From positions 1 through 57,482 of the forward strand of contig JBMYNT010000004.1 of assembly GCA_049598575.1 (NCBI GenBank): 57,482 nucleotides of DNA. The letters run 5' to 3'. A program made the position numbers and the translations under genes. The notes under the pieces are model-generated. The model was not told the DNA's origin, searched no databases, and saw only the letters and a list, made by a program, of their open reading frames with translations. Below, piece after piece: positions 1,500 through 44,352 of this stretch; positions within the stretch are counted from its first letter, which is position 1; the number at the start of each line of letters is the position of its first letter. This stretch comes from Candidatus Poseidoniaceae archaeon. GTDB taxonomy: Archaea > Thermoplasmatota > Poseidoniia > Poseidoniales > Poseidoniaceae.

Positions 1500-4400
1500 T
1501 TGATGTCACCTCCTCTGAAGATTCTGTGTTTGCTTGACCGTCTGAACTTACAACCGATTGAGGTTGCTCAAGGATGGCAGAGAGGTCAAGTCCATCCATA
1601 GCAAGGTCGTTGAGAAGACGCGCTGGATCACCAAGGTCACGTTCGATTCGTGTTGCTTTGACCTCGATATCCGTGAGTTTGCCGTAGAGGGAACCATACA
1701 ACTTGTTGGCACGTCGAAGGATAAACCAAACAACGATGGTCGACAAGAGAATGTAACCGACAAGCGAAATCAGGTTGGCCTCATCGGGCGTCATTTGTGG
1801 AGGCAGACCCAAGACGACGCCAACAAACCCAAGCAATGGGAGACTGAGAATGATGGTGAGTTGCCGACGCGAGTCTGTAAGCGCTTGGAAGTGATCAGCA
1901 TAGATGGTCGAGATGCCTTTTCGAGCACGTTGGTAATCTTCGTGAATGTAGCGGAATTCTTCGCTGCTTCGCCATGCCATTCTCCAAACCCATAGAGAGG
2001 CAAGCACGATTGAAACAGGACCCCACCATGCTGCATCATACAGATGGAAGAGGAATCCAAGCATGATGACACCTGAGTAGACTGCACCAAGGCGGTACTT
2101 CTCGTTCTGATTGGTCAGACCGAGTAAACCGATGGTGACAATCAACGCAATACCGAATCCTGCAAACGCAGTGAGTGTGGAAGGAGCGTTTGAGTCGACT
2201 TCTTGCGTGAAGACCACAACATCGTTTTCGACGACATTGTTGAGCGCATAGTCGGATTGGATACTTACTGTACAGTCTGCAGCCTTGCTTTGCTCCCACC
2301 AATCCAACGTTTCACCAGTGATCTTCCAACGCAACGTTTCAATCTCGCCCTCTGCAAGGAAGGGAATGAACGCTGGAGCATCTTCGATAACCAATCCATC
2401 ACAAACGAGTTGAGCTCCAATACCGACTGCGAGTGCTGTTCCTTCGTTCTTTAAATCAAACTCGATGTACGTTGTTTGACCTTCCATGATGAAGTCAAGT
2501 TCATTCCCTTCTGAATCAACGAGTCGTTGAGAATCGGGGTCGATCATCGGGTCGGCATAGACGTTCAATGCAAAGCGGAATGTCTCCTCCGTAATTGGTT
2601 CGTTCGGATCGGGATGGTGCAATCGCATCGTGATGTCGTACCCATCACCCGGCAGAATGTTTGGCCGATCAGGGACTTTGACATTGAAAATGAGGTTCGG
2701 GGAGAGGACGTAAGCAGGTCGCTCGGGAAGTTCGATCAGTTCACTTCCCGGAACACATGGGGCTGAGAGATTGATGTAGTGTACACTCTCTTCCCCTTCG
2801 AGATTGATGAGTGAAATGTTCCAGACGTAATCCTCTTCGTCAAGGCCCAGGTCTGCGATATCAAGGATGCGTTCGATTCCACAAAACTCGATGGAGTACG
2901 CTGCTGGAGCAGTGTTGAGGAACGGAATGTGTGAATACTCGATTGGAACGGTGACTGGATTATCGTTCGCAGGTGCTTGGAGTTTGTCTGCGTATCCAAT
3001 GTCGAACAGTCGCTTCATTTTGAGTGACGTCATCAATTCGCCGCTTCCGTCAACATCAACATCTGTTGGCACAATGGTAACTCGGAGGTCCGCAGCAGTC
3101 GAGAGTGTTGTACTACTGCTGCCTGCAGCGTTCTTGTCAACACTCACAGTCAGCTCGACTGGTACGTTTCGACGGAGCAACAACTGCGTCGATGAATCTC
3201 CTGTGTTGACGATCCAATCATCACTCGCGGTTGTTAAGCCAGGTGCGCGAACTTCGTAGCCGATGTCAACGTAGACATCTTTGTTTCCTGTATTGGTGAT
3301 GATGGCGTTCCACTGGCGATTATCCCCCTCGTGGAAGAAGTATTCGTTTTCCCATCCCTCGATGGTGTATGTGAACACTGGAGCAACGAGCAGTTGCACT
3401 TTTTTGAGCACATAAACATCACCAGTATCTGGATTGTAGACCGTCAAATTCGCATCGTGAACGGCTCCGTTGAGCAGATTGTCGGTCCCGTCAAGCGCTG
3501 GGATATCAATGTCGAAGGAGCCATTCGAGATTCCGTTGATCGGGACGGTGAACGATTGAACGGTAGGTGTTGTACTCCATCCACCATCAACGGTGATGTT
3601 GACGTTTACAGTTTCAACAAGATTCCCTGTGTTCGTCAGACCAAACGGCAATGTTAGCACGGTGCCAGGTACAGCGGCGAGGGAATCGGGCGAAGTCAGT
3701 TGGACATCGTGGACCTCAGAGATGTTGGCAACGATGTTTGCATTGAGCTCGACTAGGTCACCATTTTCGTTAATCATGGACACGGTTAAAACCGACATGT
3801 AGAATTCATCAGCACTTGCATCGGGCGAAGGAATGATGTTGACGCGGACAGATGATGAATATCCAGCGGCGATGACAACCGATGGGGAAGAGTCGAGTTC
3901 GAAAAGAACATCCTCGTATCCTCCGTTGTCCAACGATACAGCAAACGTTGTCGGTCCATTGCCAGTATTCTCGATGTTGACAAACGCAGACAATTGCTCG
4001 TACGGTGTGATGTCAATTGATTGACTGGTTGGCGTTAACGATGCACTGATTGTTTCACCGACGCGAATGTCCATGGTTTGTTGACCAATGTAGGCACCAG
4101 AGTCGAGGTCAAAGTAGCGAACGGTGAGAGGCTGCAGGAGTTGCGAAGGGGCCAGTGGGTCCGTCTTGACTGTCAGTGTCACAAGAGAAAGATGCCCGCC
4201 ACTCGTAGCTGGATAATCCTCGAAATCACTTGCAAGGTCTAGAATGGTGTTGTTAGGACCGGTTGTTGTAAGATTTGCATACCAGCCACTTGGTAAATTC
4301 TCGACGATTTCAAGACGATAGGAGGATCGGTCATTGCCGGTGTTTCCAAACGTGAACATGAAATCTGTATCAACGCCGACATCGGCATCGAGTGGTCCTG

Positions 4401-6375
4401 TCTCGGTAATTTCACCATCGACGACCTTCGGTACAACGATTGAAAGATTCTGCTCGATGACAGGCGCATAAACTGCTGAGGCAGTGTGTGTGCTACCAAG
4501 CGTTGGCGTTGTAGTCACTGGGATTTTGACGGTCCCTGAAAGTGGAAGTTGGCCAGTTCGGCTCTGAATCCCAAGAGATGCAGGGAAGGATTCTCCAAGG
4601 GTCAAACCGTTGGTTTGGCCCGGTGTCACTGAGGCATTCCAACGATCAGCTTCGTTGAATCCACCTGATGTCAACGCTTCGAATGTGATATCGCCAACAG
4701 TGATGTTTGCATCGATTGTTTCAGCCAAATCGGAGACAAGGTTGTGACGAACTTGGACCTCAAGAGCAAGAATTTCATTCACGCCAATGGTTGAACCAGC
4801 ATTCATCACGTCACTTTCAGAAAGGACGATGGTATCCACAGGAAGGCCGGGGTCAACGACAATCGCAGGACGTACCTCAATTTGACCGGAATCGGTTGTT
4901 GGGATGCTGCCAACATCTGCTTGGGCGATGATGAAAGCACTCAGGCTGTCTCCTGCACGGTTGTGCTCGGCAGGAACCAACGGAAGTTGAATCGAAGGAA
5001 CTTCAACATGAATGAATCCAGATACGGTTTGGCCGACTTGAAGTTCACCAGTGTTCTCAATCGAGATGTTGTGAACCCAATTGAGAGCATTCATCGAAAG
5101 GCCCGAAATAAGATTGAAGGATGCCGGTGCGTTGCCTGTATTGGTTACATTGAAGCCGATGGTATCGGTTTTACCGGGAAGCACGTACGTGGTGTCGTTT
5201 GAGACATCGACGGTTGCTTGTAGGAATTCACCAGCCATCACACGCGTCGTGTCTGAAAGACTGTAACCGCTGCCGGCTGAGGTGAGTGAGAGCGAAACAA
5301 TGTCAACATCGGACAGCGCAGCATTATGTGGAACGTTGACCGTGACTGGCAGCGTGGTTGTTTGCCCTGCAGTAAGCGGGCTGGTGGATGTACCATCCAG
5401 TGCCGTATCTGCCCAACCAAGCGTGCTGCTAACGCTGATGTCGAAAATGTCGGTGGTAGAGCCGATGTTTTTGATGATGTAGTACAGTGTAGTTGAATCC
5501 CCTGGCGCTGTGGTACGATCGGAAGGACCGACCATCTCAGCGATGTAATTGCTGAAAATGACATCGAATTCGGAGTGTGTAATTGTATCAGAGCCGGCTG
5601 AACCGTTCATAACCACTCTGACAGACATGTTCCAAAGACCTGTGAGGGAAGCCGCAGAGAACTGTCCGGTCAGCACCTCGCCTTGCGATGAGGAGAATAT
5701 CGACCCCGGCTCCATCGTTTCAGTGTTCGACCAATGTTCGATGGTTGAAGGTGTGTTCGATGCGTTTGTTAGAACAATCTGCATGACGGCTGAAAATGGC
5801 ATAACTCCATCGTTGCGGATGGTTGTGTTGAACATGTGTGACTGGCGGTCGAGGAAGACATACGTGTTCCCTGGTGCAGGAGTTGGAAGGTCGTCAGCGA
5901 TAACGTTCCCCTCACGAAGTGTATCAACATCGAAATCACGTCGATATTCGTTGTTGGCGGTGTTGCCATCGTTCGCACCCGAAACTCGAGCAAAGAGCGT
6001 TTGCGATGGACCTGTTGTCGCAGTCCAACTCAAAAGGTAGGTCGAAGTTCCTGAATTCGCTGTCATGACTCCGAGGTCCACGGTGTCCACGACCTGTTCT
6101 GCGGCATTCGGTGAGCCCTTGTGAACAAGCGAGAGGAACGCGTTACCAGAAGACGTGCCTGCGTTGGAGACGTCGACACGGACTGTGTGCGTGTCAGGAG
6201 CGATGACAAGCCCACTGCTTGTGAAGACCGAGCCCGCCCCGTCGAACTGCATGTTGGTTACCTGGAAATCCGGACCTGCCCGCCCACTTGTTGATGTTGC
6301 ATCGGCAAAAGGAAGCGCCAAGTGTCCAACAAGCAAAGTGACAAGGAGGACAGGAAGCAGCTTATGCCTAAACAT
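1480..6375 (-). CDS. Giant surface protein (1631 aa): signal peptide, repeated NEW3/CARDB-type Ig domains, ~5 C-terminal TM helices and a cytoplasmic coiled coil
   Basis: Hydrophobic N-terminus (MFRHKLLPVLLVTLLVGHLALPFADA); repeated 'N.GN..D.F...V....GW' units; hydrophobic segments near the C-terminus; GGAGGGG SD inside the upstream gene. Confidence 0.92.
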   Translation of the reverse strand: MFRHKLLPVLLVTLLVGHLALPFADATSTSGRAGPDFQVTNMQFDGAGSVFTSSGLVIAPDTHTVRVDVSNAGTSSGNAFLSLVHKGSPNAAEQVVDTVDLGVMTANSGTSTYLLSWTATTGPSQTLFARVSGANDGNTANNEYRRDFDVDTLREGNVIADDLPTPAPGNTYVFLDRQSHMFNTTIRNDGVMPFSAVMQIVLTNASNTPSTIEHWSNTETMEPGSIFSSSQGEVLTGQFSAASLTGLWNMSVRVVMNGSAGSDTITHSEFDVIFSNYIAEMVGPSDRTTAPGDSTTLYYIIKNIGSTTDIFDISVSSTLGWADTALDGTSTSPLTAGQTTTLPVTVNVPHNAALSDVDIVSLSLTSAGSGYSLSDTTRVMAGEFLQATVDVSNDTTYVLPGKTDTIGFNVTNTGNAPASFNLISGLSMNALNWVHNISIENTGELQVGQTVSGFIHVEVPSIQLPLVPAEHNRAGDSLSAFIIAQADVGSIPTTDSGQIEVRPAIVVDPGLPVDTIVLSESDVMNAGSTIGVNEILALEVQVRHNLVSDLAETIDANITVGDITFEALTSGGFNEADRWNASVTPGQTNGLTLGESFPASLGIQSRTGQLPLSGTVKIPVTTTPTLGSTHTASAVYAPVIEQNLSIVVPKVVDGEITETGPLDADVGVDTDFMFTFGNTGNDRSSYRLEIVENLPSGWYANLTTTGPNNTILDLASDFEDYPATSGGHLSLVTLTVKTDPLAPSQLLQPLTVRYFDLDSGAYIGQQTMDIRVGETISASLTPTSQSIDITPYEQLSAFVNIENTGNGPTTFAVSLDNGGYEDVLFELDSSPSVVIAAGYSSSVRVNIIPSPDASADEFYMSVLTVSMINENGDLVELNANIVANISEVHDVQLTSPDSLAAVPGTVLTLPFGLTNTGNLVETVNVNITVDGGWSTTPTVQSFTVPINGISNGSFDIDIPALDGTDNLLNGAVHDANLTVYNPDTGDVYVLKKVQLLVAPVFTYTIEGWENEYFFHEGDNRQWNAIITNTGNKDVYVDIGYEVRAPGLTTASDDWIVNTGDSSTQLLLRRNVPVELTVSVDKNAAGSSSTTLSTAADLRVTIVPTDVDVDGSGELMTSLKMKRLFDIGYADKLQAPANDNPVTVPIEYSHIPFLNTAPAAYSIEFCGIERILDIADLGLDEEDYVWNISLINLEGEESVHYINLSAPCVPGSELIELPERPAYVLSPNLIFNVKVPDRPNILPGDGYDITMRLHHPDPNEPITEETFRFALNVYADPMIDPDSQRLVDSEGNELDFIMEGQTTYIEFDLKNEGTALAVGIGAQLVCDGLVIEDAPAFIPFLAEGEIETLRWKITGETLDWWEQSKAADCTVSIQSDYALNNVVENDVVVFTQEVDSNAPSTLTAFAGFGIALIVTIGLLGLTNQNEKYRLGAVYSGVIMLGFLFHLYDAAWWGPVSIVLASLWVWRMAWRSSEEFRYIHEDYQRARKGISTIYADHFQALTDSRRQLTIILSLPLLGFVGVVLGLPPQMTPDEANLISLVGYILLSTIVVWFILRRANKLYGSLYGKLTDIEVKATRIERDLGDPARLLNDLAMDGLDLSAILEQPQSVVSSDGQANTESSEEVTSNGEEQS

Positions 6376-6799
6376 CGGCGTCCCCTCCTGCTTTTTCGAA
6401 CCGTTGTATGGTCACAGTCTTACCTTGCGATTTCCAAATTTCGAGCAGTTGATTGAGAAGACGGTCGTGTTCTTCGTCCGAAATTCCGAGTCGTCTGCGT
6501 TCTTCCCATAGGAGCAGTTGCTCCGTGCGAGTTAACAACGAATCTCGAAGGTACAACTCAAGTGTACGCCGGTATGCATCACGATCTGATACGGCGTATA
6601 CGATGGACGTACCCGGCAGCTGGTCTGCACGATTTTGAATGAAGTTACCAAGATTCAGTGCCTCATCGTAGGAAAGATTGCGGCGGTCAAGATCACTTTG
6701 TATGGTCGAAGCGATGCTTTGGAGTTCGTACTTGGTTTTAGCACGTTGAATTTTCTTGAAGTACTTGCGGCTTCGTCGCGTCATGCTTGGAGCCGCCAT
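6368..6799 (-). CDS. Hypothetical protein with a C-terminal TerB-like helical motif
   Basis: ATG 6799 (MAAPSM) preferred over the track start because GGAGA lies upstream. 'YLRDSLLTRTEQLLLWEERRRLGISDEEHDRLL' resembles TerB-type DG.IT..E..LL..LR..LGIS.EEH segments. Its stop overlaps the next start. Confidence 0.78.
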   Translation of the reverse strand: MAAPSMTRRSRKYFKKIQRAKTKYELQSIASTIQSDLDRRNLSYDEALNLGNFIQNRADQLPGTSIVYAVSDRDAYRRTLELYLRDSLLTRTEQLLLWEERRRLGISDEEHDRLLNQLLEIWKSQGKTVTIQRFEKAGGDADV

Positions 6800-6840
6800 G
6801 ATTACTCTTCTCCACTGGCAGTTTATCAAACAATTGCCTC

Positions 6841-6898
6841 TAAACCATTAAATTATTTATTATGCATCATATTGTATGCATTTTGCATTATAATGTTT
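6841..6898. promoter_or_regulatory. AT-rich divergent promoter region with palindromic elements
   Basis: Very AT-rich tract between divergent starts (6799 minus, 6957 plus). Contains ATGCAT-N8-ATGCAT (6862-6881), the ATTATAAT palindrome (6887-6894) and TATA-like runs. Confidence 0.55.
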
Positions 6899-6956
6899 GA
6901 ACGACTCCTTGCGGCAAAAACCAAGCATTCATGATGTGCATCAACATCCTAGAAGC

Positions 6957-7442
6957 ATGAGCAACCCTGTAACTCTTGAAATCGGGAACCACGCCCCCTC
7001 CTTCAAATGCCAAGATTCAGCGGGAAACGAGCATGATTTAGCAACATATGGCGCAGAAGGAAAAACAGTTATTCTCTACTTCTACCCTCGAGATTCAACA
7101 CCAGGATGCACGAACCAAGCGTGTGACTTTCGAGACAACATGGGTCGGTTGAACAACGAGGATTATGTTGTCCTTGGTGTATCCAAAGATTCCGAAACAT
7201 CCCATGAAAAGTTCATTGCGAAACAAGAACTCAATTTTCCGCTCTTGATGGATACAGAGGGACATTTGCACGAACTGTTCGGAACATGGCGCATGAAGAA
7301 GAACTACGGAAAGGAGTACCTCGGTTGTGTCCGATCAACATTCGTCATCAATCCAGATGGAACGCTCAAATGGTGTCGATACAACGTCCGAGCAAAAGGT
7401 CACGTTGACATGCTCATGCGTGAGCTAGGATTCGAAGTATGA
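6957..7442 (+). CDS. bcp: Peroxiredoxin, Bcp/PrxQ family
   Basis: YFYPRDSTPGCTNQACDFRD peroxidatic motif with CxxxxC; GVSKDS; RSTFVI. Start at MSNPVTLEIG. Confidence 0.95.
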   Translation: MSNPVTLEIGNHAPSFKCQDSAGNEHDLATYGAEGKTVILYFYPRDSTPGCTNQACDFRDNMGRLNNEDYVVLGVSKDSETSHEKFIAKQELNFPLLMDTEGHLHELFGTWRMKKNYGKEYLGCVRSTFVINPDGTLKWCRYNVRAKGHVDMLMRELGFEV

Positions 7443-7451
7443 GGGCCATCC

Positions 7452-7919
7452 ATGAACGAAGACGTTGGTGGCGAGCGCGTGGCCTTGTCCGCCACATCGT
7501 GTGCCTACGAACCATGCTACATTGGCAAACACCTCAAGGTTGGTGAGAATGTCTCGATCGGTTCGATGTGTCACATTGGCCGCAACGTCACGATCGGGGC
7601 CAACAGCAACATACAGGGGTCGAACTACATCGCAGACAAAACCATCATCGGGAATTCTGTATTCATCGGTCCAAATTCAACAATTCTCAACGATAAGTAT
7701 CCTCCATCAGGTGATGCAAGCAAATGGATTCCGGTTCAGATTGACGACAACGCCGTCATCGGAGGAGGATGCACTGTCCTACCGGGCGCTCACATTGGAG
7801 AGAGGGCAGTGCTTGGAGGCGGTTCCGTTCTGACGAAACCCCTTCCGGATGGAGAAGTATGGGCTGGAAATCCTGCACAATTTCTTATGACTCGGGAAGA
7901 GTACGACAAAAAGAGGTGA
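7452..7919 (+). CDS. Hexapeptide-repeat (left-handed beta-helix) acyltransferase, sugar N-acetyltransferase-like
   Basis: Repeated [IV]GxN[VS]xIG hexapeptides; 'IGPNSTILNDKYP'; C-terminal WAGNPA. Confidence 0.87.
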   Translation: MNEDVGGERVALSATSCAYEPCYIGKHLKVGENVSIGSMCHIGRNVTIGANSNIQGSNYIADKTIIGNSVFIGPNSTILNDKYPPSGDASKWIPVQIDDNAVIGGGCTVLPGAHIGERAVLGGGSVLTKPLPDGEVWAGNPAQFLMTREEYDKKR

Positions 7920-7921
7920 CG

Positions 7922-8728
7922 ATGATGGAAGGCAAAGCACACGTCATCTCGTTTCTCAAGAAATGCATCGATTATGCCAATGCCTCCATCGAACGAAAGC
8001 AAAAACGTGGCGATGTTGAAGACATCGCAAAATGGGAGGCTTATCGCGACTATACTGCACATGCAGTGATGGAGGTTGAAGCAGGTGAGCTTGACCGATG
8101 GTTTCCTTACCAACAAAAGGCGCTCGGAGAATCTGAAGTGAGCACCCTCTGCCTTGATGCACTCACGCACGATGCTCGCTCAGCATGGTTGACGAATCTT
8201 GCAAGTCCACGGCCCTTGGCTCTCATTGCAACGTCATCCGATGAAGGAGTGCGAAACATCGCCCCTTACACCTCGCTATCTGTTGTATCCAATTCACCAC
8301 CGATGGCGGTTGTTTCACTCTCAGCAGATCGAAACAATCGTTGGAGAGATACCTTGCTGAACATGCGACAGACAAAGAAAGCCGTCCTCAATTTCCTCCC
8401 GATCTCATCGGATGCAGCAACCGTGGTTGAACAAACTGCAAAGCCAATCGAACACGCTACGAGCGAGTGGGAGGCGTTTGGGTTGGAAAGTCTAGAAACA
8501 AACGAACTCGTCATGAACGATGCTGCATTTGCCATTGTTGGTGAATTGGTCGAAGAAGTCGATCTTCCTGATGCAAAAGCCAAATTAGCCATCCTCAGGT
8601 TGTCAGAGATTCTCATCCCTGGTGAACTTGATGATGCTCAACCTGCGCACATTCTCTGTCAACACGGTTTGAATCGTCTCATGGCAACGCCGACAGAGTG
8701 GCATTACAACATCGAACGCAGTGTTTGA
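7922..8728 (+). CDS. Flavin reductase-like (DIM6/NTAB family) protein with an extra ~60-aa N-terminal helical domain
   Basis: 'PRPLALIATSSDEGVRNIAPYTSLSVVSNSPP' and 'KDT..N'-like 'RDTLLNMRQTKKAVLNF' are family motifs. GAGGTG SD before ATG 7922; the track's 7769 start overlaps the upstream gene. Confidence 0.82.
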   Translation: MMEGKAHVISFLKKCIDYANASIERKQKRGDVEDIAKWEAYRDYTAHAVMEVEAGELDRWFPYQQKALGESEVSTLCLDALTHDARSAWLTNLASPRPLALIATSSDEGVRNIAPYTSLSVVSNSPPMAVVSLSADRNNRWRDTLLNMRQTKKAVLNFLPISSDAATVVEQTAKPIEHATSEWEAFGLESLETNELVMNDAAFAIVGELVEEVDLPDAKAKLAILRLSEILIPGELDDAQPAHILCQHGLNRLMATPTEWHYNIERSV

Positions 8729-9657
8729 TCAAGGCCGACCTCAAGCGTGGTGTTGGCTTGCCAATTCAGGTGCTTCTTGGTCTGTTCGAGATTGGGCAAA
8801 CGGCGTTTTGAGTCACCCGGATGTCCTTGACCGTAGCGAATTCGGACCTTTTGGCCTGTTTCACTTGCAACAATCTCAGCGACTCGCTGAGCAAGATCAA
8901 GCATGGTACATTCCTCCTCAGAACCGAGATTCAAACTCATTCCTTCAAGGCCTTCAGCCAGACCTGCGGACTCAATACCACGAACGAGATCATCAATGTA
9001 GGTCAACGAACGAGTTTGTGAACCATCACCATGAACGATGATTTCTCCCTTCTTTACGGCGCGTTGCAGCATCATTGCGACCACTTGACCATACTCGTTG
9101 CCGAGCAACCGAGGCCCGTAGCCATTGAATGGGCGCACGATGCGCGCATCGAGACCTTGGCGAACAGCGTGTTGGACAGCCAGTTCACCGAGATACTTGC
9201 TTGCTCCATAGGCATGTCGTTGGTGTTCGTGAGCGACAGGAAAAACCGATGCTTCATCGCCTCCGAGCGGCATAAATTCTGATTCTCCAAACGCTTCAGG
9301 AGATGAAGTGAAGACGTAACGACAATTGTTTTCTTCTGCGAACTCGAGTGAACGCAAGGTCGAATTGAGATTCACATCCATCACCATTCTTGGCTCTTCA
9401 TGAAACCACTTGGTCCCATTGATGGCTGCAAGATGAAAGACGATGTCAACACTGCTCGGGTTTGCAATCATGTCATACGTAGTCGAAACAGATGCATCTC
9501 CTTCAATAAACGTAATGTTGTCTTCAACCATACGCAAGTTTTCTTTCGATCCTCTCCAACAATTATCGATGACAATGACAGCATGACCAAGTCTTACAAG
9601 AGATTCAACAAGACTTGAACCAAGAAAACCAGCACCTCCTGTGACGAGGATTCGCAT
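8704..9657 (-). CDS. NAD-dependent nucleotide-sugar epimerase/dehydratase (extended SDR, UDP-glucuronate decarboxylase-like)
   Basis: TGGAGFLGS Rossmann motif; catalytic YGASK (YxxxK); VRPFNGYGPR. Confidence 0.9.
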   Translation of the reverse strand: MRILVTGGAGFLGSSLVESLVRLGHAVIVIDNCWRGSKENLRMVEDNITFIEGDASVSTTYDMIANPSSVDIVFHLAAINGTKWFHEEPRMVMDVNLNSTLRSLEFAEENNCRYVFTSSPEAFGESEFMPLGGDEASVFPVAHEHQRHAYGASKYLGELAVQHAVRQGLDARIVRPFNGYGPRLLGNEYGQVVAMMLQRAVKKGEIIVHGDGSQTRSLTYIDDLVRGIESAGLAEGLEGMSLNLGSEEECTMLDLAQRVAEIVASETGQKVRIRYGQGHPGDSKRRLPNLEQTKKHLNWQANTTLEVGLDQTLRSML

Positions 9658-9661
9658 CGTT

Positions 9662-11407
9662 TCACACTCGCTCAAGAATTTCAATCGAGACCTGCCCTTG
9701 TTCCCGCTTCAACCGAACAAGGTCTCCATCGTTGACCATCATGCATGGGTCCTCCTCAAATCCATGTCCATATGGAACGTTCAACAACGAACATGCAGGA
9801 AGCGTCAACGGACATACGTCACGGTTAACGATGGCAAGTGGACCCTTGTTTTCGTACAATAAGCCCATCAGAACGTATGGAGCAACGGTTGACCCAGACC
9901 CCTTAGGATAGATGAGAACGGTATCCTCAATGGCACGACCATCAAGGGGATGTCCGGCTTCCTCAACCACGCCAGTATCTCGGTTGACATAGCCAAGATA
10001 CGTAATTGGAACATCGGTCACCATCGCTCGACCTTCAACACAGAAGTCACCTTGTGAGTTCAAACCAGAGCCGTTGATGGTCCGAAGTCCAGTCTGCAAC
10101 GTCTTTGCACTAACGTGACCACCGTGCGAAGATTGAGCAAGCGTAGGCGTTGGCCCATTTGCTCGTTTAGGGTCAATGGCATGACGAACGCATTCCTCGA
10201 TCGAAGCCACACTGGTTGGAATTCGATTGAGGCCACTGGTCAGGTAATGTTCTGCTTTCATCGAATTTGTCAACAAATGATTGTATTTTTCTCGGTTGTA
10301 GGGTGTGACCTCTGGACAAGTGTCAACGAGAACCAATGCACCTGCTTCTTCCAACATTGAAACAGTTCCATCCGCCTCGGCTAAAGCATAATTCTCCTGA
10401 CTTGTGAACACCCATAGCCGTTGATTTGGTATCGATTCTCCAAACTCCATATGTGTGCGAAGCGCAGCTGCAGTCGTCCGCATTTCTTCCAAACTGGCTT
10501 GCGGACATCCAATAACGATGAGATCAACCTTTCCTTTTGGACTGAGTTCCTCATAGCGTTCTTCAAGATCCGATTGAGTGAAGACGAGCGTTCCTTCCCA
10601 ATCGATGGAACCAATGGGTTGCGTTGGTGGTTCCGTATGCCCTTCAACCCACATCATTGGTGAGCCATAATTGGCGGCTGCAGCCGTTAACGCCTTTTTC
10701 CGTGCAAAAGAAATGAACGCATCGAGACCCTCGACATACGGCATTGGTCCGAACGGCAAATCCCACTCAGGCTTCGCATTCTTACCAATCCAATCACCAA
10801 GAATGGAATAATCGGAAAGCGTTTCCAGTTCGCATTCAACAACGACCCTGATGTTCGGTTGACGATTTGACTCAAGGTGCAACCCCCATGCAGGAGCATA
10901 CCCCGTAAGGGCTGTTGCAAGGGCGCTCAATCCCGACTCACGATTGGTGATCAACGACGTCCATGTGTTCGAATAACAAACGGCATTCGACTCGGCCCAT
11001 GATGCGGTATCGCCCTCAATCTCAATGCCTCGATCGTAAGGCGTACAGGACAGCGTTGCTTCGATACCAAGTCGGTCATAGGCCTGGACAATCTCAAATT
11101 GTTGCTCAAGAAAATTGGGCCATGCGATACCCATTTCTTCCATTTTTTCACGATCGCATCCAGCTGAATTCAACGTCGTTGGAATTACAACCGTCCCATC
11201 ATCATCTCCACTCAAATCCTTGAGGAAGGTACGCAATCCATGACCTCCAGTAATGACTGAGACGCCAGAAACGTGTGCGTGATCGACTTCGACAAAGGAT
11301 TCTGCTTTGGCAACACGTGCAAGGTCAACCACCAGGCGAGCAGCTTTCTGGCGAGTTGGTCCTTCCTTGCCTTCCAACTGCTCCGACAAACGCTTTGGAA
11401 GTTGCAT
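9662..11407 (-). CDS. Aconitase X; large (DUF521) and small swiveling (DUF126) subunits fused; probable phosphomevalonate dehydratase
   Basis: Three Fe-S Cys motifs (LSCTPY, IGCPQAS, VDTCP); WAESNAV; TNSMKAEHY; C-terminal 'ITYLGYVNRDTG...HPLDG...PKGSGST' is the swiveling domain. Start could be 11407 or 11437. Confidence 0.87.
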   Translation of the reverse strand: MQLPKRLSEQLEGKEGPTRQKAARLVVDLARVAKAESFVEVDHAHVSGVSVITGGHGLRTFLKDLSGDDDGTVVIPTTLNSAGCDREKMEEMGIAWPNFLEQQFEIVQAYDRLGIEATLSCTPYDRGIEIEGDTASWAESNAVCYSNTWTSLITNRESGLSALATALTGYAPAWGLHLESNRQPNIRVVVECELETLSDYSILGDWIGKNAKPEWDLPFGPMPYVEGLDAFISFARKKALTAAAANYGSPMMWVEGHTEPPTQPIGSIDWEGTLVFTQSDLEERYEELSPKGKVDLIVIGCPQASLEEMRTTAAALRTHMEFGESIPNQRLWVFTSQENYALAEADGTVSMLEEAGALVLVDTCPEVTPYNREKYNHLLTNSMKAEHYLTSGLNRIPTSVASIEECVRHAIDPKRANGPTPTLAQSSHGGHVSAKTLQTGLRTINGSGLNSQGDFCVEGRAMVTDVPITYLGYVNRDTGVVEEAGHPLDGRAIEDTVLIYPKGSGSTVAPYVLMGLLYENKGPLAIVNRDVCPLTLPACSLLNVPYGHGFEEDPCMMVNDGDLVRLKREQGQVSIEILERV

Positions 11408-11490
11408 GAGTTGACGCAGACATCGGCGCTTCATCAAGACTCGTGTTCACTACCGATGGTTTTGATACGGTTGACGTCGCTCCTCCGTTT

Positions 11491-13656
11491 ATGTCCTCAA
11501 CTGAGAACAACACACAAGGAGCCCGCCGTGATGAACAACAAACACGTTTTCTATCACGTGAAAACATCGTCAAGATGTTGAAGACAACCATCGTGCTCAG
11601 CGCACTGTTCATGTCCATCTGGGCGGTTATGCTGAACCAGTCGGTTGCATCTCTCGATGGAACTGAAGATGAAGAATCTGCCATTCTCGTCGAAACAGAA
11701 GGCCGTGAAGCCGATGTCTACTGTCCAGAGGGTGGAGCAGACATCTTCCTTGGCACCGATTTCGATGGAGATGGGAAACTCTCAACAAATGAAATCACCA
11801 CCAGCACCAAAGTGTGTCATGGCCAACAAGGTCTTTCTGGACCTCAGGGACAATCCGGACAGGATGGTGAAAACGGATTCAACGGCAACTCAAGCCTCGT
11901 GAATCTAACAGCGCTATCACCAGGAATTCCTTGCCAATTCGGAGGAATTCAAATCCAATCAGGAATCGACAACGATCACAACCAATTCCTCGACGAAGAA
12001 GAAGTGCAAACAACGGCACACATCTGCGATGGGCAACTCGGAGACGAGGGGCCTGAGGGTCAACAAGGAACCGATGGGGCGCAAGGATACTCTGCCCTCA
12101 TTGAACAACACCAAGCTCCAACCTCCATCTGTCCACAAGGCATCGTCATGCACTTCGGTGTTGATGATGGAACCGACATGGCGACAGCAAACGACGGAAC
12201 TCTTCAGCAAGACGAAATTCGAGAATCCTTGCAAATTTGTTCTGAGCAGTTGTATGAAGGATTAACAGGAGATATATTCACAAATTCAGGCGATGCAATG
12301 TCATCTCTTTGTGATAAATCAGAATGGAGCGAAACATCATCAGTCTTCATCTTTTCAGCATCCGATGGAACCAACGGATGCGAACTATGGATTCTCGATC
12401 AAGACAACGCACCATTGATGCTCATGGACATTCATGCATCTGGCGATTCGATTCCAGGCCGTGAACTTGGCATTCACGTTGTCGAAACGGATCGTGGACA
12501 ACGTTTCTTCTTTGATGCTGATGATGGCGTTCATGGACGCGAATTATGGGTGAGCGATGGAACATCCATCGGAACAACGATGCTTGGAGACATGGAATCT
12601 GGTGATGCCATTGATTGGAACTCGGAAATCACGACATGGATGAACGGTGTTGTGTTCACAACGAACGGGCAACAAGGGAACAGAATGTGGTGGAGCAATG
12701 GAAGTGTGACCACATCCATCTGGCAAGCACCGTGGTTTTCAGCTTCCGCATCATCGGATTTGATCAATCAATCCGTTGCAATAACGTCGATTGGTCAAGG
12801 TCTACTCCATGGTGATGCATCGGGTCTTTGGTTTGCTGCGAAAGAGACACAAATTGGACTCGAAATGATGTACCTTGACAACAACGGGACGCTGCATATG
12901 TTCGATTTGCAACCATTCGGTGATTCTTCACCGTCTCGTGGTGTTTCGGTCGATGGTGGATATGTGGTCGTTGCTAGTGATGGGACTGGACGACAACTGG
13001 CGAAGTTGGATCATGATGGAGGCTACCAGTGGCTGACCTCAATGACAAAAGAAGGAACGACCACACCAACATCCGTGGTTGCTCCTGCCTTTGGAATCCA
13101 TAAACTCGGTGATACGCTCGTCTTTGACGTGGTCTACAGAGGTGCTGATGCAACGTTGTTCGCCTACTCCTTGACCAACGGAATGCTTCAGGAACTCAGT
13201 TCAAACATTGTTGCACCGGGTCACAGTGTAGATGTTGTCTCGAATGGAAACACGATTTGGTTTGATTGTGTTCAAGCCAATACAGGCATGGAGATTTGCC
13301 AGACCGATGGAACCGTTACGGGCACAATGTTGTCCGTGGATTTGATGCCTGGCCTGAGTGCAAGTCAACCACGCTCGTTTGCTTACGTTGATTCAACATT
13401 GTACGTCCTCGCTGAAGGGTTGGATGATTCGGGAACAAACAGTGGCCACGCGTTGTGGTCCATCGATGGACAAGCTGCAACACTCGAGCTCGACGTGTGG
13501 TCGGGTGTTGGCAACGATTCCAATGCTGGCACATATGGATCACTTGTTGCAACATCGAACCATCTGTTGTTTGTTGCCGATGATGGCCAACACGGTCATG
13601 AATTGCATCAATACCTTCGTTCCTCCATCCGTGATCAATGGATGGTTTGGGATTGA
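11491..13656 (+). CDS. Surface protein: N-terminal membrane anchor/signal, Cys-bracketed repeats with collagen-like G-X-Y stretches, and an ELWxxDGT-repeat beta-propeller
   Basis: Hydrophobic IVLSALFMSIWAVML; three 'CP.GG...G.D.d.dG.L...E......C.G' units; GXY runs at 11821-11892 and 12031-12093; GRELWVSDGT, GMEICQTDGT and GHALWSIDG repeats. Start uncertain (11443, 11491 or 11575). Confidence 0.88.
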   Translation: MSSTENNTQGARRDEQQTRFLSRENIVKMLKTTIVLSALFMSIWAVMLNQSVASLDGTEDEESAILVETEGREADVYCPEGGADIFLGTDFDGDGKLSTNEITTSTKVCHGQQGLSGPQGQSGQDGENGFNGNSSLVNLTALSPGIPCQFGGIQIQSGIDNDHNQFLDEEEVQTTAHICDGQLGDEGPEGQQGTDGAQGYSALIEQHQAPTSICPQGIVMHFGVDDGTDMATANDGTLQQDEIRESLQICSEQLYEGLTGDIFTNSGDAMSSLCDKSEWSETSSVFIFSASDGTNGCELWILDQDNAPLMLMDIHASGDSIPGRELGIHVVETDRGQRFFFDADDGVHGRELWVSDGTSIGTTMLGDMESGDAIDWNSEITTWMNGVVFTTNGQQGNRMWWSNGSVTTSIWQAPWFSASASSDLINQSVAITSIGQGLLHGDASGLWFAAKETQIGLEMMYLDNNGTLHMFDLQPFGDSSPSRGVSVDGGYVVVASDGTGRQLAKLDHDGGYQWLTSMTKEGTTTPTSVVAPAFGIHKLGDTLVFDVVYRGADATLFAYSLTNGMLQELSSNIVAPGHSVDVVSNGNTIWFDCVQANTGMEICQTDGTVTGTMLSVDLMPGLSASQPRSFAYVDSTLYVLAEGLDDSGTNSGHALWSIDGQAATLELDVWSGVGNDSNAGTYGSLVATSNHLLFVADDGQHGHELHQYLRSSIRDQWMVWD

Positions 13657-14477
13657 ACTCGGTCGATGCAATACGAGCATGATTCACCTGGAACATAGGC
13701 AGGATGGAGCTGTTCTTTCGGCGTCAAGGGTTCGCGGCAGGCGAAGCAGACCGTCGTACCGGTTTCAGTAAGATCAGGGAGGAGTGCAACACGCTTGTCA
13801 AAGACAAAACACTCACCGTCCCAGTAGTCACCTCCAACTTGCTCAAAGTAGCCGAGGATGCCTCCTTCAAGCTGCTTGATGTTGGTAAAACCTGCATCTT
13901 TCATGATGACACTGGCCTTTTCACAGCGGACGCCTCCAGTACAGAACATGACGATTTCTTTGTCTTTGAAAGATGAATCCATCTCAGAGACCGCTTGAGG
14001 AAACGCTCGGAATGTGTCAATGTCGAGTTCAATGGCATTTTGAAACGTTCCGAGACGTGTTTCGTAGGCGTTTCGAGTGTCAAGCAGTACAACGTCCTCG
14101 CCATTGAGGAGCTTTTCATGCAGTTGAGCAGGGAGTATTCGTCCATCATCAGGTTCAATCCGATCGAAGTTCGGCAAACCGACCGAGATGATTTCGTTCT
14201 TGAGACGCACATTCATGCGGTTGAACGGTTGGTGTTCTGAATATGAAATTTTGAAATCGATGTCTGAAAATCGTTCATCTTGGCTGAGAAACAATCGGAA
14301 TTGATCGATGTTCGTTTCTGGACCTGCAACGAAGATATTGATGCCTTCATGGCTGAGCAGAATCGTGCCTTTCAATTCGAGCTCATCGCACTTCCGTTTG
14401 AACGGTTGGCGCAGAGCATCTCGATCGTCGAGTACAACAAACTTGTACCCTGCAATGTTGAGGTGTTGCTCCGTCAT
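13635..14477 (-). CDS. trhO: Rhodanese-domain protein of the UPF0176/YceA family (tRNA U34 hydroxylase TrhO-like)
   Basis: GTILLSHEGIN, LDTRNAYE..LGTF..A, MFCTGGVRCEKAS, LEGGILGY, WDGECFVFDKR and C-terminal CFAC...CSYC. Confidence 0.88.
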   Translation of the reverse strand: MTEQHLNIAGYKFVVLDDRDALRQPFKRKCDELELKGTILLSHEGINIFVAGPETNIDQFRLFLSQDERFSDIDFKISYSEHQPFNRMNVRLKNEIISVGLPNFDRIEPDDGRILPAQLHEKLLNGEDVVLLDTRNAYETRLGTFQNAIELDIDTFRAFPQAVSEMDSSFKDKEIVMFCTGGVRCEKASVIMKDAGFTNIKQLEGGILGYFEQVGGDYWDGECFVFDKRVALLPDLTETGTTVCFACREPLTPKEQLHPAYVPGESCSYCIDRVQSQTIH

Positions 14478-16292: not shown

Positions 16293-19200
16293 TCATTTGT
16301 ATTGCAAAATCTCTCCGTTGGCATCTTTGTACCACCAACTTCCATCTTGTTGATTCTGCCACCACCAAACGCCATCCGAGCCTTGGGTCCAACCATCGGC
16401 AGATGCGGTTTGTGTTGTTGCAGCAACCGGTTCAGATTCTTGAATCGGTTCACTCAAGTTGAGGTCAGCATCGCCCTCAATGTCTTCTTCTTCATCCTCA
16501 TCGAGATAATCCGAATATTCGTCCCATTCGTATTCCGATTTGGAACCACGCCGAACGGTTGCATTTCGAGCCATGAGCAAGAGAGCGAGAATGATCGAAA
16601 GGCCGAGCAATGCACCAATGGAACCGAGAATTGGGTTCACATCTCCAAACACAGCCTCGCTGAAGGAAGGGTCGCTCTTCGGTCGAACATCGACCGAAGG
16701 CCCGTTGCCTTTGACGCCATTTTCGAGCTGAACTTCAAGCCATTGCAGGCCCACCTGCTCAGGAGCCCAATCGATGAGTATGGTACCAAGACCGCCTTCT
16801 GCAACCTCGAGTTCGGTTTGACGGAGTACTTCCGACGTTCCATCAGCACGGACAACGGAAATCGTAGCATCTGTGGTTCCGTCCAATGTTCCAACGTTCT
16901 TGACGAAGATTTGCACAGCGGTCGAATCGCCTTGTTGGAGGTTCAAGCGTGAGTATTCCATGGCCGGAGTCTCCAGTTCAAACTTCGGCTGTCGCCATTC
17001 CATGAGCCATGACGTGACCGCATTGCCTGCAGATGAACCGGCTTCTCCAAGAACAAGATTGCCAGCAAGGTCTCGTCCTTCAACAAGAACGTAAACGGTA
17101 AAGCGATCGACCAACATATCGTCCGTGATGACGCTCAAATCCATCGTTCCTGTACCGATGAGACTCAATCCACTAATTTCTGTGCCTTGCAAGAGGAACG
17201 GACTGTCACCCTCCCGAATGAATTCACCTGTTTCGGTATTTTCGACCCACCACGCCAATCGTAAGGATTCAAAGTCAATTCCTCCTTCTTCGGAAAGGAC
17301 AATCGTGACTTCGTGTTCTTCAGCCGAAAGAATCGACCCTGGACGGGGTGTTTGCACCTCGACCGGTTGCGGGCCAAGCCCGTCAACAACCATCCACTTC
17401 ACAGAGGATTCTTTCTCGGTCGCATCGACGCCTTGAGGTGGCAAACAACCAACGGACCACGTCAATGGAATGGTTCCAGATGTTTGTGGTGAACGAAGTT
17501 CAACGTTCCAAATTCCATTGTAGGTGTCTGCCGAGTAGGTTTGACCGGCAAACATGACCTCTACACTGCAGTTGAAATCAGGTGTTTCTTCCGTTGCAGC
17601 AAACACCAATCCACCTGTCAATTCGAACGGCGAATTCGGTGGCAATCGGGCACCATCATCGAGAACAGTACCTTGTGTCAACACCAACGAAACAGATTCT
17701 TGAGGAATGGTCAATGCAGGTGAAAACCGCCACCGAAGTGCAGGGAACGTTTGGATGACTTCCTGTCCTGCACGATCGATGATTTTCACACTCGGCTCAC
17801 GGAAAGTATCACCAAGGTCAGGCGTGGTCCACGCCAATTCGAGGTCAACAACCAATCGGGTGTCTTTCTCGTAGGGTCCAGCGGTGGTACCATCGAGGGC
17901 AAGCATGGCACAATCGTTGACGATCAAATGGATGCTGTTTGATGTGCAGGAATCGGTTCTGAAATCCCACGTAAACGACAGAGGTGAGGTGAGGATGTTC
18001 GAAGCGAGCTGGATTTCAACCGTTGTAAAGTCCGAAGCACCGTTGGGTTCGCTCATGTCGACACGTAACGTGTAAGCCTGTTCAGGGTGCAACCACGGTT
18101 GTGCACCACCTGTCCATGACATAGCGTTCGAGGTCAAGGTTGGTGGCCCATCCGGTCCGATTTGATACATGAATAGGTGCTCGCCTTCTTCCCCAGTCCC
18201 TGCATCTTCGAGTGCTTGTCCCGATTCGTCCTCACCGACCAGATAGCCTGCGACCTTCTGGCCTTGCGAGCCCATGGAATCATCGAACAAGAGCGTGTAG
18301 ATTCCTGTTGAAAGGGTCAAATCCGTTGGGATAATGAGCGATCGTTGTTTGTATTCATCTGGACTTGGCCAGCCGTTCAAATCGACATCATCGGCCCATT
18401 GTCTCCACAGCATCACGTGGACATCGGATGGCAACAACACAGGGTCAAGAATCTGGAATTGAACGGTTTGACTGGTCGATGCGAGTCGATGATCGTACCA
18501 TGCAACCGTTGAATCGATGACGGCCGGGGCGGTTGGGTCGATCTTGAAGGTCCGAGTGTATTCAGAATCTCCAACAACATCTCCACCATTCAATGGAATC
18601 ACTCGAACGGTCCAGGTCAAATCGCCGAAGGAATATGGAGCCACATCGGAAACATTCCACATGTCGACATCGAGACTCGTGGTATTGGCGACCATGGTAT
18701 TTCCTTGCCACAACTGAACCTCAGCATCGCCGTCTGCAAAGGCATCGATACTCTCAACGCCTTCGTAACCGACATCAATCGTGAAATTCAGGCCCATGCC
18801 AGCTGCGAGGTACTCGGTGGACGAATCGATGATGCCATGATCGTCCATGATATCGACCGATTTGATGACCAAATCATTTTCAAACGCTTGGCCTCCTGTG
18901 AGCCCATTCCACATGTATTGACCTGGTCGTGAAATAACGCTGTTATCGAGAACAAGACGCATCGAAGCAGTAAGCCAGTTTTCATCGTCCCATCCTTGCT
19001 CAACGCGGAATTTCACGGTTATTTCACGCATTGTTGCCGATGTCTCTGAGATGCTGAACGCTTCGGTCGGATGCAATTCGATGAGATCACTGTCTGCTTG
19101 TCCGAGAGCAGTTCCTCCTCCAGTTGGCAACAACCACGTAGCATGATTGTTTTCTCCTTGGACATCAAGTCGAATCAACGAGATGGTACGTGCGGTATCG

Positions 19201-30812: not shown

Positions 30813-31187
30813 TTATGCTACGTCTTCAGATTCTCGTGCTTCAAGCTCGGCACGGACTTCGTCCATATCCAAATCTTGGAGTTTGGTAATCAAATCCTTG
30901 AGCGCTTCTTCTGGGAGAGCACCGGGTTGCATGAACACACCAATTCCTTCTTTGAAGGCGATTGTTGTTGGAATGGAACGGATACCAAATGAACCTGCGA
31001 GCGCTTGCTCAACTTCTGTATCGACCTTCGCAAAAACGACATCGGGGAATTCCTCAGAAACTCGCTCGAAGACGGGGGCATAAGCACGACATGGCCCGCA
31101 CCACTCAGCCCAGAAGTCGATAATCACGAGGTTGTTCTCCTCAATGATGTTGTTGAAGGATGCCTCTTGCATTTCCACGGTCGCCAT
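30813..31187 (-). CDS. trxA: Thioredoxin
   Basis: [10 protein letters not shown]; IRSIPT. CTTATA lies 22-27 nt upstream of ATG 31187. Confidence 0.95.
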
Positions 31188-39111: not shown

Positions 39112-40092
39112 ATGGTCAAAGCGAGTGCTCCCGGAAAGTGCATACTTTTCGGAGAACACGCTGTTGTTTACGGGCAACCAGCCTTGGCCTGCAGCATTAG
39201 CCAACGAATGACCCTCGAACTTGAGGTGGAAGAGACGTTTGACACGTGGCGATTGGATGGACGTACCTTCAATCCCAAAAAACACCCACACATCGATTAC
39301 CTTCGAAAGCAATTGCCACCATTCGAGGAGCAACCAATTCATATTCGTATACGAGGTTCCATCCCCAAAGCATCTGGCCTTGGCTCCTCCGCTGCATTGT
39401 CGGTAGCACTGTGTGGTGCACTCCAACAACTTCGCGGTGAAGATCTGAACCCAATGCAGGCGAGTGAACTCTCACACAGTGCTGAAGCGAACGCACAAGG
39501 TGGACGTGCGAGTCCAATGGATACTGCCACCAGTTCCTTTGGAGGATTTGTTGTTCTCTCAGACACCGTTGAAGACGATTTGGAATACCTTGGAGTGCGT
39601 ACGATGGACGTTGAAGGTGCGACGCTTCAGTGGCACCTGCATACATTCAACGCGGAGATTCCGGATGGCGTTGCTCTCGTCATAGGCAACACAGGCGTTC
39701 ACGGTTCGACATCATCCATGGTCAAACATGTGGCTGATTTACTCCGCAAGAACCCCCAACGTAGCGTCGAGCTCGAAACCATCGGAGCCATCGCTCGAAG
39801 AGGTATTCAAGCCCTCAAAGAAGGCAACATGAAGGCGGTAGGGCAAGCCATGAGCGAGAATCACATGGTTCTGCGTTCGCTCGGTGTTTCTTCTCCTGAA
39901 CTCGAGCGTTTGATACGAGCGGCTGCGCCCTCAAGCCTTGGCGTCAAATTGACTGGAGCAGGCGGAGGCGGTTGCATGATTGCTCTAACGATGAATCCTG
40001 AAGAAACCGTTGGCGCCATTGAAATGGAAGGTGGTCGAGCGTTTATTACGCATTTCAATGAGCCCGGCCTTGCAATTGAGCATTTAATCTAG
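39112..40092 (+). CDS. mvk: Mevalonate kinase (GHMP kinase)
   Basis: SAPGKCILFGEHAVVYG; IPKASGLGSSAA; SPMD; KLTGAGGGG. Confidence 0.93.
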   Translation: MVKASAPGKCILFGEHAVVYGQPALACSISQRMTLELEVEETFDTWRLDGRTFNPKKHPHIDYLRKQLPPFEEQPIHIRIRGSIPKASGLGSSAALSVALCGALQQLRGEDLNPMQASELSHSAEANAQGGRASPMDTATSSFGGFVVLSDTVEDDLEYLGVRTMDVEGATLQWHLHTFNAEIPDGVALVIGNTGVHGSTSSMVKHVADLLRKNPQRSVELETIGAIARRGIQALKEGNMKAVGQAMSENHMVLRSLGVSSPELERLIRAAAPSSLGVKLTGAGGGGCMIALTMNPEETVGAIEMEGGRAFITHFNEPGLAIEHLI

Positions 40093-44328: not shown

Positions 44329-44352
44329 GTACAAGGAAGCAGACATTAAGGT

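Follow-up and report, generated by a model that had tools for sequence, protein, structure and literature searches.

Aconitase X (AcnX) proteins have been described in two arrangements. Three architectures are recognised in the aconitase superfamily, within which AcnX is known only as a single chain with the order domain 4-linker-1-2-3 (type I) or as separate subunits (type II) (Watanabe 2021, PMC8184944), and a later account likewise gives only type I and split forms (Komeyama 2023, PMC10040528). In phosphomevalonate dehydratase (PMDh; type IIb AcnX) a [4Fe-4S] cluster is held by Cys at sites A, 1 and B (Cys122, Cys297 and Cys356 in Aeropyrum pernix ApPMDh; Cys110, Cys283 and Cys342 in Thermococcus kodakarensis TkAcnX), whereas in type I AcnX the Cys ligands lie at sites A, B and C, site 1 being occupied by Ser (PMC10040528; PMC8184944). 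Mevalonate 5-phosphate (MVA5P) is contacted in TkAcnX by G48, V49, S50, N53, N79, E129, S130, S131, K361 and Y365 and by small-subunit L27, S62, T63 and V64, with Ser62 next to substrate C2 and Thr63 contacting the carboxylate (PMC8184944). The stretch analysed here (the window; 57,482 nt, contig JBMYNT010000004.1 of assembly GCA_049598575.1, Candidatus Poseidoniaceae archaeon) carries an AcnX gene in neither arrangement: large and small parts are joined in the order 1-2-3-linker-4 (large-to-small). No description of a 1-2-3-4 AcnX was found in the AcnX literature. Judged from its sequence, the protein is, with a probability of about 80%, the single-chain PMDh of the archaeal mevalonate pathway in Ca. 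Poseidoniales, and it is best regarded as a known enzyme in an architecture not described before, not as a new enzyme.

Domain layout of the single-chain AcnX

9662..11407, minus strand: coding sequence of the single-chain AcnX (putative phosphomevalonate dehydratase), 581 aa plus TGA stop (9662-9664)
10169..11407, minus strand: large part, residues 1-413, aconitase domains 1-2-3 (Pfam AcnX, AcnX_2nd, AcnX_3rd), from Pfam and the 7cnr_A match
10067..10168, minus strand: linker, residues 414-447, from a dip in predicted local distance difference test score (pLDDT), codon ratio and absence from split relatives
9665..10066, minus strand: small swivel part, residues 448-581, aconitase domain 4 (Pfam AcnX_swivel_put), from Pfam and the 7cnr_B match
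11249..11269, minus strand: phosphate-binding loop Ser47-Gly48-Val49-Ser50...Thr53 (TkAcnX Ala47-Gly48-Val49-Ser50...Asn53), from alignment
11045..11047, minus strand: Cys121, predicted cluster ligand, site A (TkAcnX Cys110, ApPMDh Cys122), from alignment and codon check, invariant in 110 sequences
10505..10507, minus strand: Cys301 in GCPQ, predicted cluster ligand, site 1 (TkAcnX Cys283, ApPMDh Cys297), from alignment and codon check
10499-10501: Gln303, in place of the usual His, from alignment
10316..10318, minus strand: Cys364 in DTCPE, predicted cluster ligand, site B (TkAcnX Cys342, ApPMDh Cys356), from alignment and codon check
9884..9892, minus strand: Ser506-Thr507-Val508 in GSGSTV, equivalent to TkAcnX small-subunit Ser62, Thr63 and Val64, from alignment and codons

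The frame begins at the ATG at 11407, giving 581 aa, and homologues of 578-581 aa share the same MxLPxRL beginning; an alternative upstream start (TTG/ATG at 11437/11434) is possible, the minus-strand open reading frame being open to TTG 11437. AcnX/DUF521 covers residues 1-408 (E 4e-99, 332 bits vs. a threshold of 31.5) and AcnX_swivel/DUF126 residues 469-545 (E 9e-18, 64 bits vs. a threshold of 27), so that both domains of the aconitase X family (PF04412 and PF01989) exceed curated Pfam thresholds and E-values of this size rule out a chance match. The order precomputed for homologues is identical (AcnX, AcnX_2nd, AcnX_3rd, swivel). A first-pass annotation made from the sequence alone had placed DUF521 first, then a linker, then DUF126 at about 9662-10080, with three Cys motifs. 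This layout was borne out in each part, including the swivel domain and the motifs SCTPY (C121), IGCPQ (C301) and DTCPE (C364), and the linker peptide that it quoted, GPTPTLAQSSHGGHVSAK, is found at residues 418-435, inside the linker. The linker (~35 residues) is constant in length across Poseidoniaceae, has its flexible core at about residues 419-435, and is predicted to form a beta-strand at residues 443-447.

Among PDB entries the N-terminal part is most similar to the TkAcnX large subunit (7cnr_A, E 4e-44), and the C-terminal part matches the TkAcnX small subunit (7cnr_B, E 2e-14) and also AF0055 (2hi6). The fused Agrobacterium enzyme aligns in two swapped pieces, its residues 30-104 with 456-530 of the query and its residues 176-568 with 10-413. 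Residues 84-93 (CDREKMEEMG, ~11129-11158) are missing in TkAcnX, while the Agrobacterium enzyme has matching length here. Cys84, Cys144 and Cys406 are invariant within the Poseidoniales clade. A second metal site in the swivel domain, suggested by residues invariant in close relatives (Cys532, Cys539, Cys555 and His548), was considered and rejected, with Cys532 and Cys555 lost in two distant Poseidoniales-type sequences (P0121 and P0122).

Integrity of the fusion

In the nearest split relatives the large- and small-subunit genes are adjacent and 1-4 nt apart, so that a one-base error could mimic a fusion, and joining of neighbouring genes by sequencing or assembly error, or a pseudogene, was weighed for this reason. 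The probability of such an artefact is negligible. Loci were collected by scanning one genome per GTDB species (80 loci retained from 108 relatives) and adding three others; in 80 of these 83 Poseidoniales loci, from independent assemblies and at 65-99% identity, one unbroken tblastn alignment runs over both domains, and the remaining three end at contig edges. A search of 5.8 billion proteins returned >120 clusters at 70-98% identity, all of 578-620 aa and with the same Pfam order. Logan contigs from four independent DNA runs span the linker (~10043-10165) with substitutions only and no indel, as do contigs from two rRNA-depleted RNA-Seq runs (metatranscriptomes), also without indel. A stop codon in the linker, named by the first-pass annotation as something reads might reveal, or a frameshift, was thus seen in none of the four DNA runs, the two RNA-Seq runs or the 80 loci. 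The linker is also ~30 residues longer than simple read-through would give. Among 27 gap-free loci of at least 80% identity, the ratio of non-synonymous to synonymous change is 1.0 in the linker vs. 0.24-0.28 in the domains; the linker is relaxed, yet in frame and constrained (partial purifying selection), which also argues against an artefact. The fusion is real.

AlphaFold2 (AF2), run on a 110-sequence alignment, returned a single compact fold with mean pLDDT 93.6 and predicted template modelling score 0.92. pLDDT falls below 90 only at about residues 421-440, the lowest blocks being 421-430 (64) and 431-440 (83). This model superseded an earlier one (38 sequences, 71-91% identity) that was poor in domain 1 (pLDDT 31-56). 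Foldseek comparisons, which rest on the earlier, weaker model, matched the large part to 7cnr_A with a template modelling (TM) score of 0.79 (target-normalised) and the small part to 7cnr_B with TM 0.87, and gave an alignment to mitochondrial aconitase (1aco) over the whole length (736 columns), explained by the 1-2-3-4 order common to both.

Predicted cluster ligands and substrate

Cluster type, substrate, product and activity are predicted here from residues aligned to the characterised enzymes. Cys is present at sites A, 1 and B, as in type IIb AcnX, and site C has no Cys, position +2 after Cys364 being Glu. Residues equivalent to the TkAcnX MVA5P contacts are identical at 12 of 14 positions. 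Counting the cluster ligands, Gly48, Val49, Ser50, Asn79, Cys110, Glu129, Ser130, Cys283, Cys342, Lys361 and Tyr365 of TkAcnX are kept, together with Leu27, Ser62, Thr63 and Val64 of its small subunit, while Ala47 is replaced by Ser, Asn53 by Thr, Ser131 by Asn and His285 by Gln. The first two of these replacements are majority states in split archaeal enzymes, in which SGVST is the commonest pattern of the large subunit; the Asn53 equivalent is Thr in 43 of 111 family representatives (the most frequent state), and the Ser131 equivalent is Asn in 17 of 111. The proposal of a single-chain phosphomevalonate dehydratase in the first-pass annotation is thus supported by the type IIb ligand set and the kept MVA5P contacts, at the level of sequence.

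GCPQ had been noted at the outset as a deviation from GCPH. His does occupy this position in 100 of 111 representatives (Gln in 8, Asn in 2, Tyr in 1), although GCPQ is not unique to this protein and is a clade trait: four of the eight Gln-bearing representative clusters are the Poseidoniales clade, Gln303 is invariant in 38 Poseidoniales sequences, and Gln also occurs in split enzymes. The unusual C-P-E of the third Cys motif recurs in a split Hodarchaeales enzyme, which has GCPN in place of GCPQ, so that GCPQ appears to be a trait of the lineage.

Both parts are closest, in sequence and in fold, to type IIb PMDh (A. pernix APE_2087.1/APE_2089; T. kodakarensis TK1249/TK1248, 7CNR/7CNS; M. mazei MM_1525/MM_1524), which has the same predicted Cys ligands A, 1 and B, the Ser-Thr-Val loop in domain 4 and the MVA5P contacts, is archaeal, and acts at a step, between mevalonate kinase (MVK) and a UbiD-type decarboxylase, also expected of the window protein. 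It differs in that the window protein is one chain with a ~35-residue linker, has GCPQ rather than GCPH and Asn for Ser131, comes from a mesophilic, aerobic, surface-ocean host, and is encoded by a gene not clustered with the decarboxylase. The type II definition of two subunits does not apply to one 581-aa chain.

Type I AcnX is likewise a single chain of the same four domains and similar size (579 vs. 581 aa). Its order is the opposite (4-linker-1-2-3), its [2Fe-2S] ligands lie at sites A, B and C, site 1 being Ser, and an Asp/Trp/Thr/Ile set binds hydroxyproline. It is found in bacteria or fungi and derives from a separate fusion from type IIa. The cis-3-hydroxyproline (C3LHyp) dehydratase equivalog is the best NCBIfam model by E-value, and some large-to-small fusions elsewhere sit in proline or amino-acid contexts, both of which could point to a C3LHyp dehydratase. 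However, the window protein scores only 225 bits vs. the cut-off of 700 for this model (NF051439), site-1 Cys present with site-C Cys absent is the opposite of type I, Asp203, Trp35, Thr72 and Ile206 of the Agrobacterium enzyme (AtAcnX) are replaced by TkAcnX-type residues (Ser47, Leu471, Val508 and Ser50, respectively), and the tree described below places the protein with PMDh-like sequences of split archaeal enzymes. A C3LHyp dehydratase is therefore highly improbable, and domain order, ligand set, C3LHyp-binding residues and model score all place the protein outside type I.

The order 1-2-3-linker-4 is that of mitochondrial aconitase, AcnA and IRP1, and the Foldseek alignment to 1aco could be taken to support a true aconitase, as comparative genomics originally predicted for AcnX. 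Shared features would also include a [4Fe-4S] cluster (here predicted) on three Cys with one free iron, and domain 4 closing on the active site. These enzymes belong to another subfamily, have insertions, a long linker and a much greater size, differ in ligand positions and carry out full isomerisation, not dehydration alone. Pfam Aconitase (PF00330) reaches 18.4 bits vs. a cut-off of 28.7, characterised AcnX enzymes are not aconitases (PMC8184944, PMC10040528), and a canonical ACO/acnA is already a core gene of marine group II (MGII; Tully 2019, Supplementary Data 10), leaving a true aconitase with next to no probability. The window protein is instead predicted to be PMDh-like in chemistry, and it lies outside the published type I/type II architectural scheme.

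As a single-chain PMDh, residues 1-413 would fold as domains 1-2-3 and hold a [4Fe-4S] cluster via Cys121, Cys301 and Cys364, and residues 448-581 would form swivel domain 4, closing over the active site and supplying Ser506, Thr507 and Val508. The free iron would bind the C3-hydroxyl of (R)-mevalonate 5-phosphate, with loss of water giving trans-anhydromevalonate 5-phosphate, which would then pass to a UbiD-type decarboxylase and isopentenyl phosphate kinase (IPK).

Origin of the fusion

An exhaustive HMMER search of 1.84 billion representatives identified 1900 relatives. The best 150 of these 1900 were classified as large only (120, including fragments), large-to-small (19, including fragments), small-to-large (10, including one fragment) and small only (1); nine of the large-to-small proteins are full length, in addition to the window protein. 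A neighbour-joining tree was built from the 110 near-complete large domains among the 150 (393 columns, 100 bootstraps). Bootstrap support is 100% for the Poseidoniales clade, 100% for a second large-to-small clade (P0140/P0147/P0257) and 97% for the grouping of large-to-small P0137 with split P0244, while all large-to-small proteins form one group in 0% of replicates. In this tree the large domain of the window protein is placed within split archaeal enzymes and is distant from type I. The independent fusion proposed by the first-pass annotation agrees with this position and with the 0/100 for monophyly of all large-to-small proteins. From these sequences the Poseidoniales fusion appears independent of the type I fusion, but it is not unique.

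In the nearest split relatives (a Hodarchaeales metagenome-assembled genome, MAG, and one other) the large- and small-subunit genes are adjacent on the same strand, overlapping by 4 nt in one pair and lying 1 nt apart in the other, and the linker segment is missing when their large and small subunits are concatenated. Loss of the stop codon plus ~30 added residues would explain the Poseidoniales form. The ~35-residue linker may thus have taken the place of the stop/start junction between two neighbouring ancestral genes, large then small, probably in a single event in the Poseidoniales stem that would be independent of type I and of other large-to-small fusions. Linkers of the different large-to-small lineages differ in both length and sequence, and one Promethearchaeota protein is nearly without a linker.

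Named matches to the AcnX are Candidatus Poseidoniaceae or Poseidoniales, and most of the 80 retained GTDB loci bear the label Poseidoniales or that of one of its families, Poseidonia among them. Those at 70-99% identity are mostly Poseidoniaceae/Poseidonia, and the set at ~65% identity includes one Thalassarchaeaceae MAG, so that the fusion is found in both Poseidoniales families. In a cluster that includes members named Thermoplasmata archaeon and Aciduliprofundum, the large subunit is a separate protein. With both families fused and this Aciduliprofundum-like relative split, the fusion is a trait of the order Poseidoniales. The architecture is accordingly not rare, being the usual form throughout an abundant order (108 GTDB relatives). 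Current database labels of the gene in this order are 'DUF521 domain-containing protein' and 'predicted aconitase', and the fusion is implicit in names such as 'predicted aconitase/predicted aconitase with swiveling domain'. Three GTDB MAGs labelled Rhodobiaceae, Salipiger bermudensis and Verrucomicrobiales (loci L006, L010 and L065, respectively) carry the Poseidoniales gene at 70-98% identity, most likely on mis-binned archaeal contigs.

Pathway context and gene neighbourhood

39112..40092, plus strand: MVK, from TIGR00549 (215 bits vs. a cut-off of 163) and GHMP kinase domains
8704..9657, minus strand: NAD-dependent epimerase/dehydratase (short-chain dehydrogenase/reductase, SDR; 317 aa), from Pfam and NCBIfam, starting 4 nt past the AcnX stop

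MVK, which would supply the substrate mevalonate 5-phosphate, is encoded 28 kb from AcnX by a solitary gene between those for a CCG/4Fe-4S protein and the TATA-binding protein (TBP); mevalonate-pathway genes are dispersed in this genome, unlike the operons of Asgard loci. No UbiD-type decarboxylase was detected in the window or in the 83 related loci (tblastn, E. coli UbiD query). No paper on the mevalonate route of Poseidoniales/MGII was found, and mevalonate is mentioned neither by Rinke 2018 nor in the main text of Tully 2019. In Supplementary Data 10 of Tully 2019, atoB, HMGS, HMGR, MVK, IPK, UbiD and UbiX are core MGII clusters, present in 72-100% of MGIIa and MGIIb genomes, and canonical aconitase is also core. 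No PMK, PMD or DMD is among these core clusters, and the string 'mevalonate' occurs nowhere else in that dataset. The presence of MVK and IPK in the core genome, and the absence of PMK, PMD and DMD from it, imply that the archaeon needs a PMDh.

Several observations weigh against assigning this role to the fused AcnX. The Poseidoniales AcnX gene has no mevalonate-pathway genes around it, its neighbours being an SDR epimerase gene in MGIIa and tRNA-modification genes in MGIIb. As ubiA and ubiE belong to the core set too, UbiD of this order could have a role in quinone synthesis instead of the mevalonate pathway. Near the active site, two residues depart from the crystallised enzyme: Asn replaces Ser131, and Gln, next to a Cys ligand, replaces His285. 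The phylogenetic position comes from neighbour-joining only, on 393 columns, with 54% support for the sister relation to Hodarchaeales.

An AcnX of other specificity (like the uncharacterised types IIc-f) might act, for example, on a sugar-derived hydroxy-acid with the SDR epimerase/dehydratase encoded directly downstream. The junction between the two genes is a tight 4 nt, an RNA-Seq contig covers it, so that the epimerase is probably co-transcribed with AcnX (it is not part of the enzyme), and the same gene follows AcnX in 68 of 78 loci. The lack of mevalonate-pathway neighbours and the Asn and Gln replacements would also fit. However, the epimerase is absent from the MGIIb loci at ~65% identity, where AcnX instead neighbours tRNA-modification genes (SpoU methylase, archaeosine TGT), and a functional link between AcnX and the epimerase, which reaches no NCBIfam equivalog cut-off, was down-weighted for this reason. 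The PMDh ligand set and MVA5P contacts are kept, the group yielded no second PMDh candidate, and MVK and IPK without PMK, PMD and DMD in the core genome require a PMDh, all of which make another specificity improbable and favour the single-chain PMDh.

Host and other genes in the window

The host is a Ca. Poseidoniales (marine group II) archaeon. Other window genes are consistent with this group (TBP, archaeal-type tRNA synthetases, surface proteins, S8 subtilase, S15 peptidase, peroxiredoxin and thioredoxin), and include the following.

1480-6375, 16293-21371, 40828-47937, 52989-57329 and 28973-30772: large surface/secreted proteins and S15 peptidase
6957-7442, 13635-14477 and 30813-31187: PrxQ-type peroxiredoxin, rhodanese protein like TrhO (oxygen-dependent tRNA U34 hydroxylase) and thioredoxin

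The window encodes the S15 X-Pro dipeptidyl peptidase and five predicted surface or secreted proteins of very large size (1166-1692 aa) with PKD/CARDB/NEW3 domains, one of them an S8 subtilase. A protein-degrading lifestyle has been proposed for marine group II, and these proteins fit it. As markers of oxic life, the peroxiredoxin, TrhO-like protein and thioredoxin share the window with an Fe-S dehydratase that is presumably oxygen-labile.

Other fused or rearranged AcnX

The assumption of the first-pass annotation that fused bacterial AcnX has the small domain at the N-terminus is correct for type I; elsewhere it fails, as large-to-small fusions exist in bacteria. At least four other large-to-small AcnX lineages were identified, including bacterial ones. 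The annotation had also asked whether such fusions are already widespread and characterised: they are widespread in sequence databases, and none was found characterised. Informative loci are as follows.

L085, 963-8019: operon of UbiX, UbiD, AcnX (large-to-small), IPK, HMG-CoA synthase, thiolase and DUF35
L086 (Promethearchaeota MAG), 5602-12582: FMN_dh (IDI2-like) and HMG-CoA reductase, then UbiX, UbiD, AcnX (large-to-small) and IPK
L091 (contig of GCA_976602455.1), 4597-7515: small-to-large AcnX (504 aa) with PMDh signature, directly after a UbiD gene
L087 (Bacillota MAG), 8001-9755: large-to-small AcnX by P5C reductase and a branched-chain amino-acid ABC transporter
L087, 16354-17755: second AcnX in three genes (AcnX + 2nd, 3rd, swivel), after an IlvD/Edd dehydratase
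L092/L093 (Aciduliprofundum-like Thermoplasmata), 12418-13176: AcnX small subunit fused to a NUDIX domain (252 aa)

Two archaeal large-to-small lineages other than Poseidoniales combine the exact TkAcnX signature with mevalonate operons (L085 and L086), a context that supports a PMDh function for them and counts in favour of the same role for the window protein. Such proteins (for example Promethearchaeota GAB4307629.1 and the metagenomic P0140 group) have the same architecture and PMDh signature as the window protein, but fall in separate clades, have unrelated or nearly absent linkers, keep GCPH and share only 33-37% identity with it. Five small-to-large clusters of 482-504 aa are found among the representatives. 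The protein in L091, whose cluster includes members named Wukongarchaeota, combines this order with a PMDh signature beside UbiD, and PMDh-like enzymes therefore appear to have been fused in both orders. Bacterial large-to-small fusions with Asp at the position of AtAcnX Asp203 adjoin proline-type genes, and one further large-to-small fusion with Asp here adjoins a racemase and peptide transporters. From these signatures and gene contexts, the large-to-small architecture appears to have arisen repeatedly and in more than one functional subfamily. In L092/L093 the fused small subunit is parted from the large subunit by an opposite-strand M20 peptidase gene, and its NUDIX part could be an IDI-type isomerase.

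Significance of a putative single-chain PMDh

Fusion of neighbouring subunit genes is a common event, and a specialist would for this reason be interested rather than surprised by the Poseidoniales protein. PMDh is described as an oxygen-sensitive bottleneck (PMC10040528, PMC12547664), and it takes two genes to transfer it into bacteria with the ATP-saving archaeal mevalonate pathway. Engineering papers from 2025 use the two-subunit PMDh of M. mazei and name PMDh as the oxygen-sensitive step; the PMDhs tried so far are two-subunit enzymes of M. mazei and A. pernix only. The protein identified here would be a natural single-chain PMDh candidate from an aerobic mesophile, with one gene and a fixed 1:1 subunit stoichiometry, and of modest engineering interest.

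The domain-4 tether, GCPQ and Ser131Asn could together be an adaptation that stabilises the oxygen-labile [4Fe-4S] PMDh in an obligately aerobic archaeon of the sunlit surface. This is speculative and rather unlikely: the same architecture occurs in Promethearchaeota, an Asgard group known mainly from anoxic settings, and Gln at the GCPQ position is also found in split enzymes. If true, it would provide a naturally more oxygen-tolerant PMDh specified by one gene and make the ATP-saving archaeal mevalonate pathway workable in aerobically grown bacteria.

For the family, a third AcnX arrangement, 1-2-3-linker-4, is added to the published type I/type II scheme, so that AcnX alone shows all three architectures of the aconitase superfamily, and PMDh-like enzymes appear to have been fused repeatedly. 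For the organism, assignment of the fused AcnX as PMDh would fill a missing step in the synthesis of isoprenoid-lipid precursors in a highly abundant archaeal group of the surface ocean.

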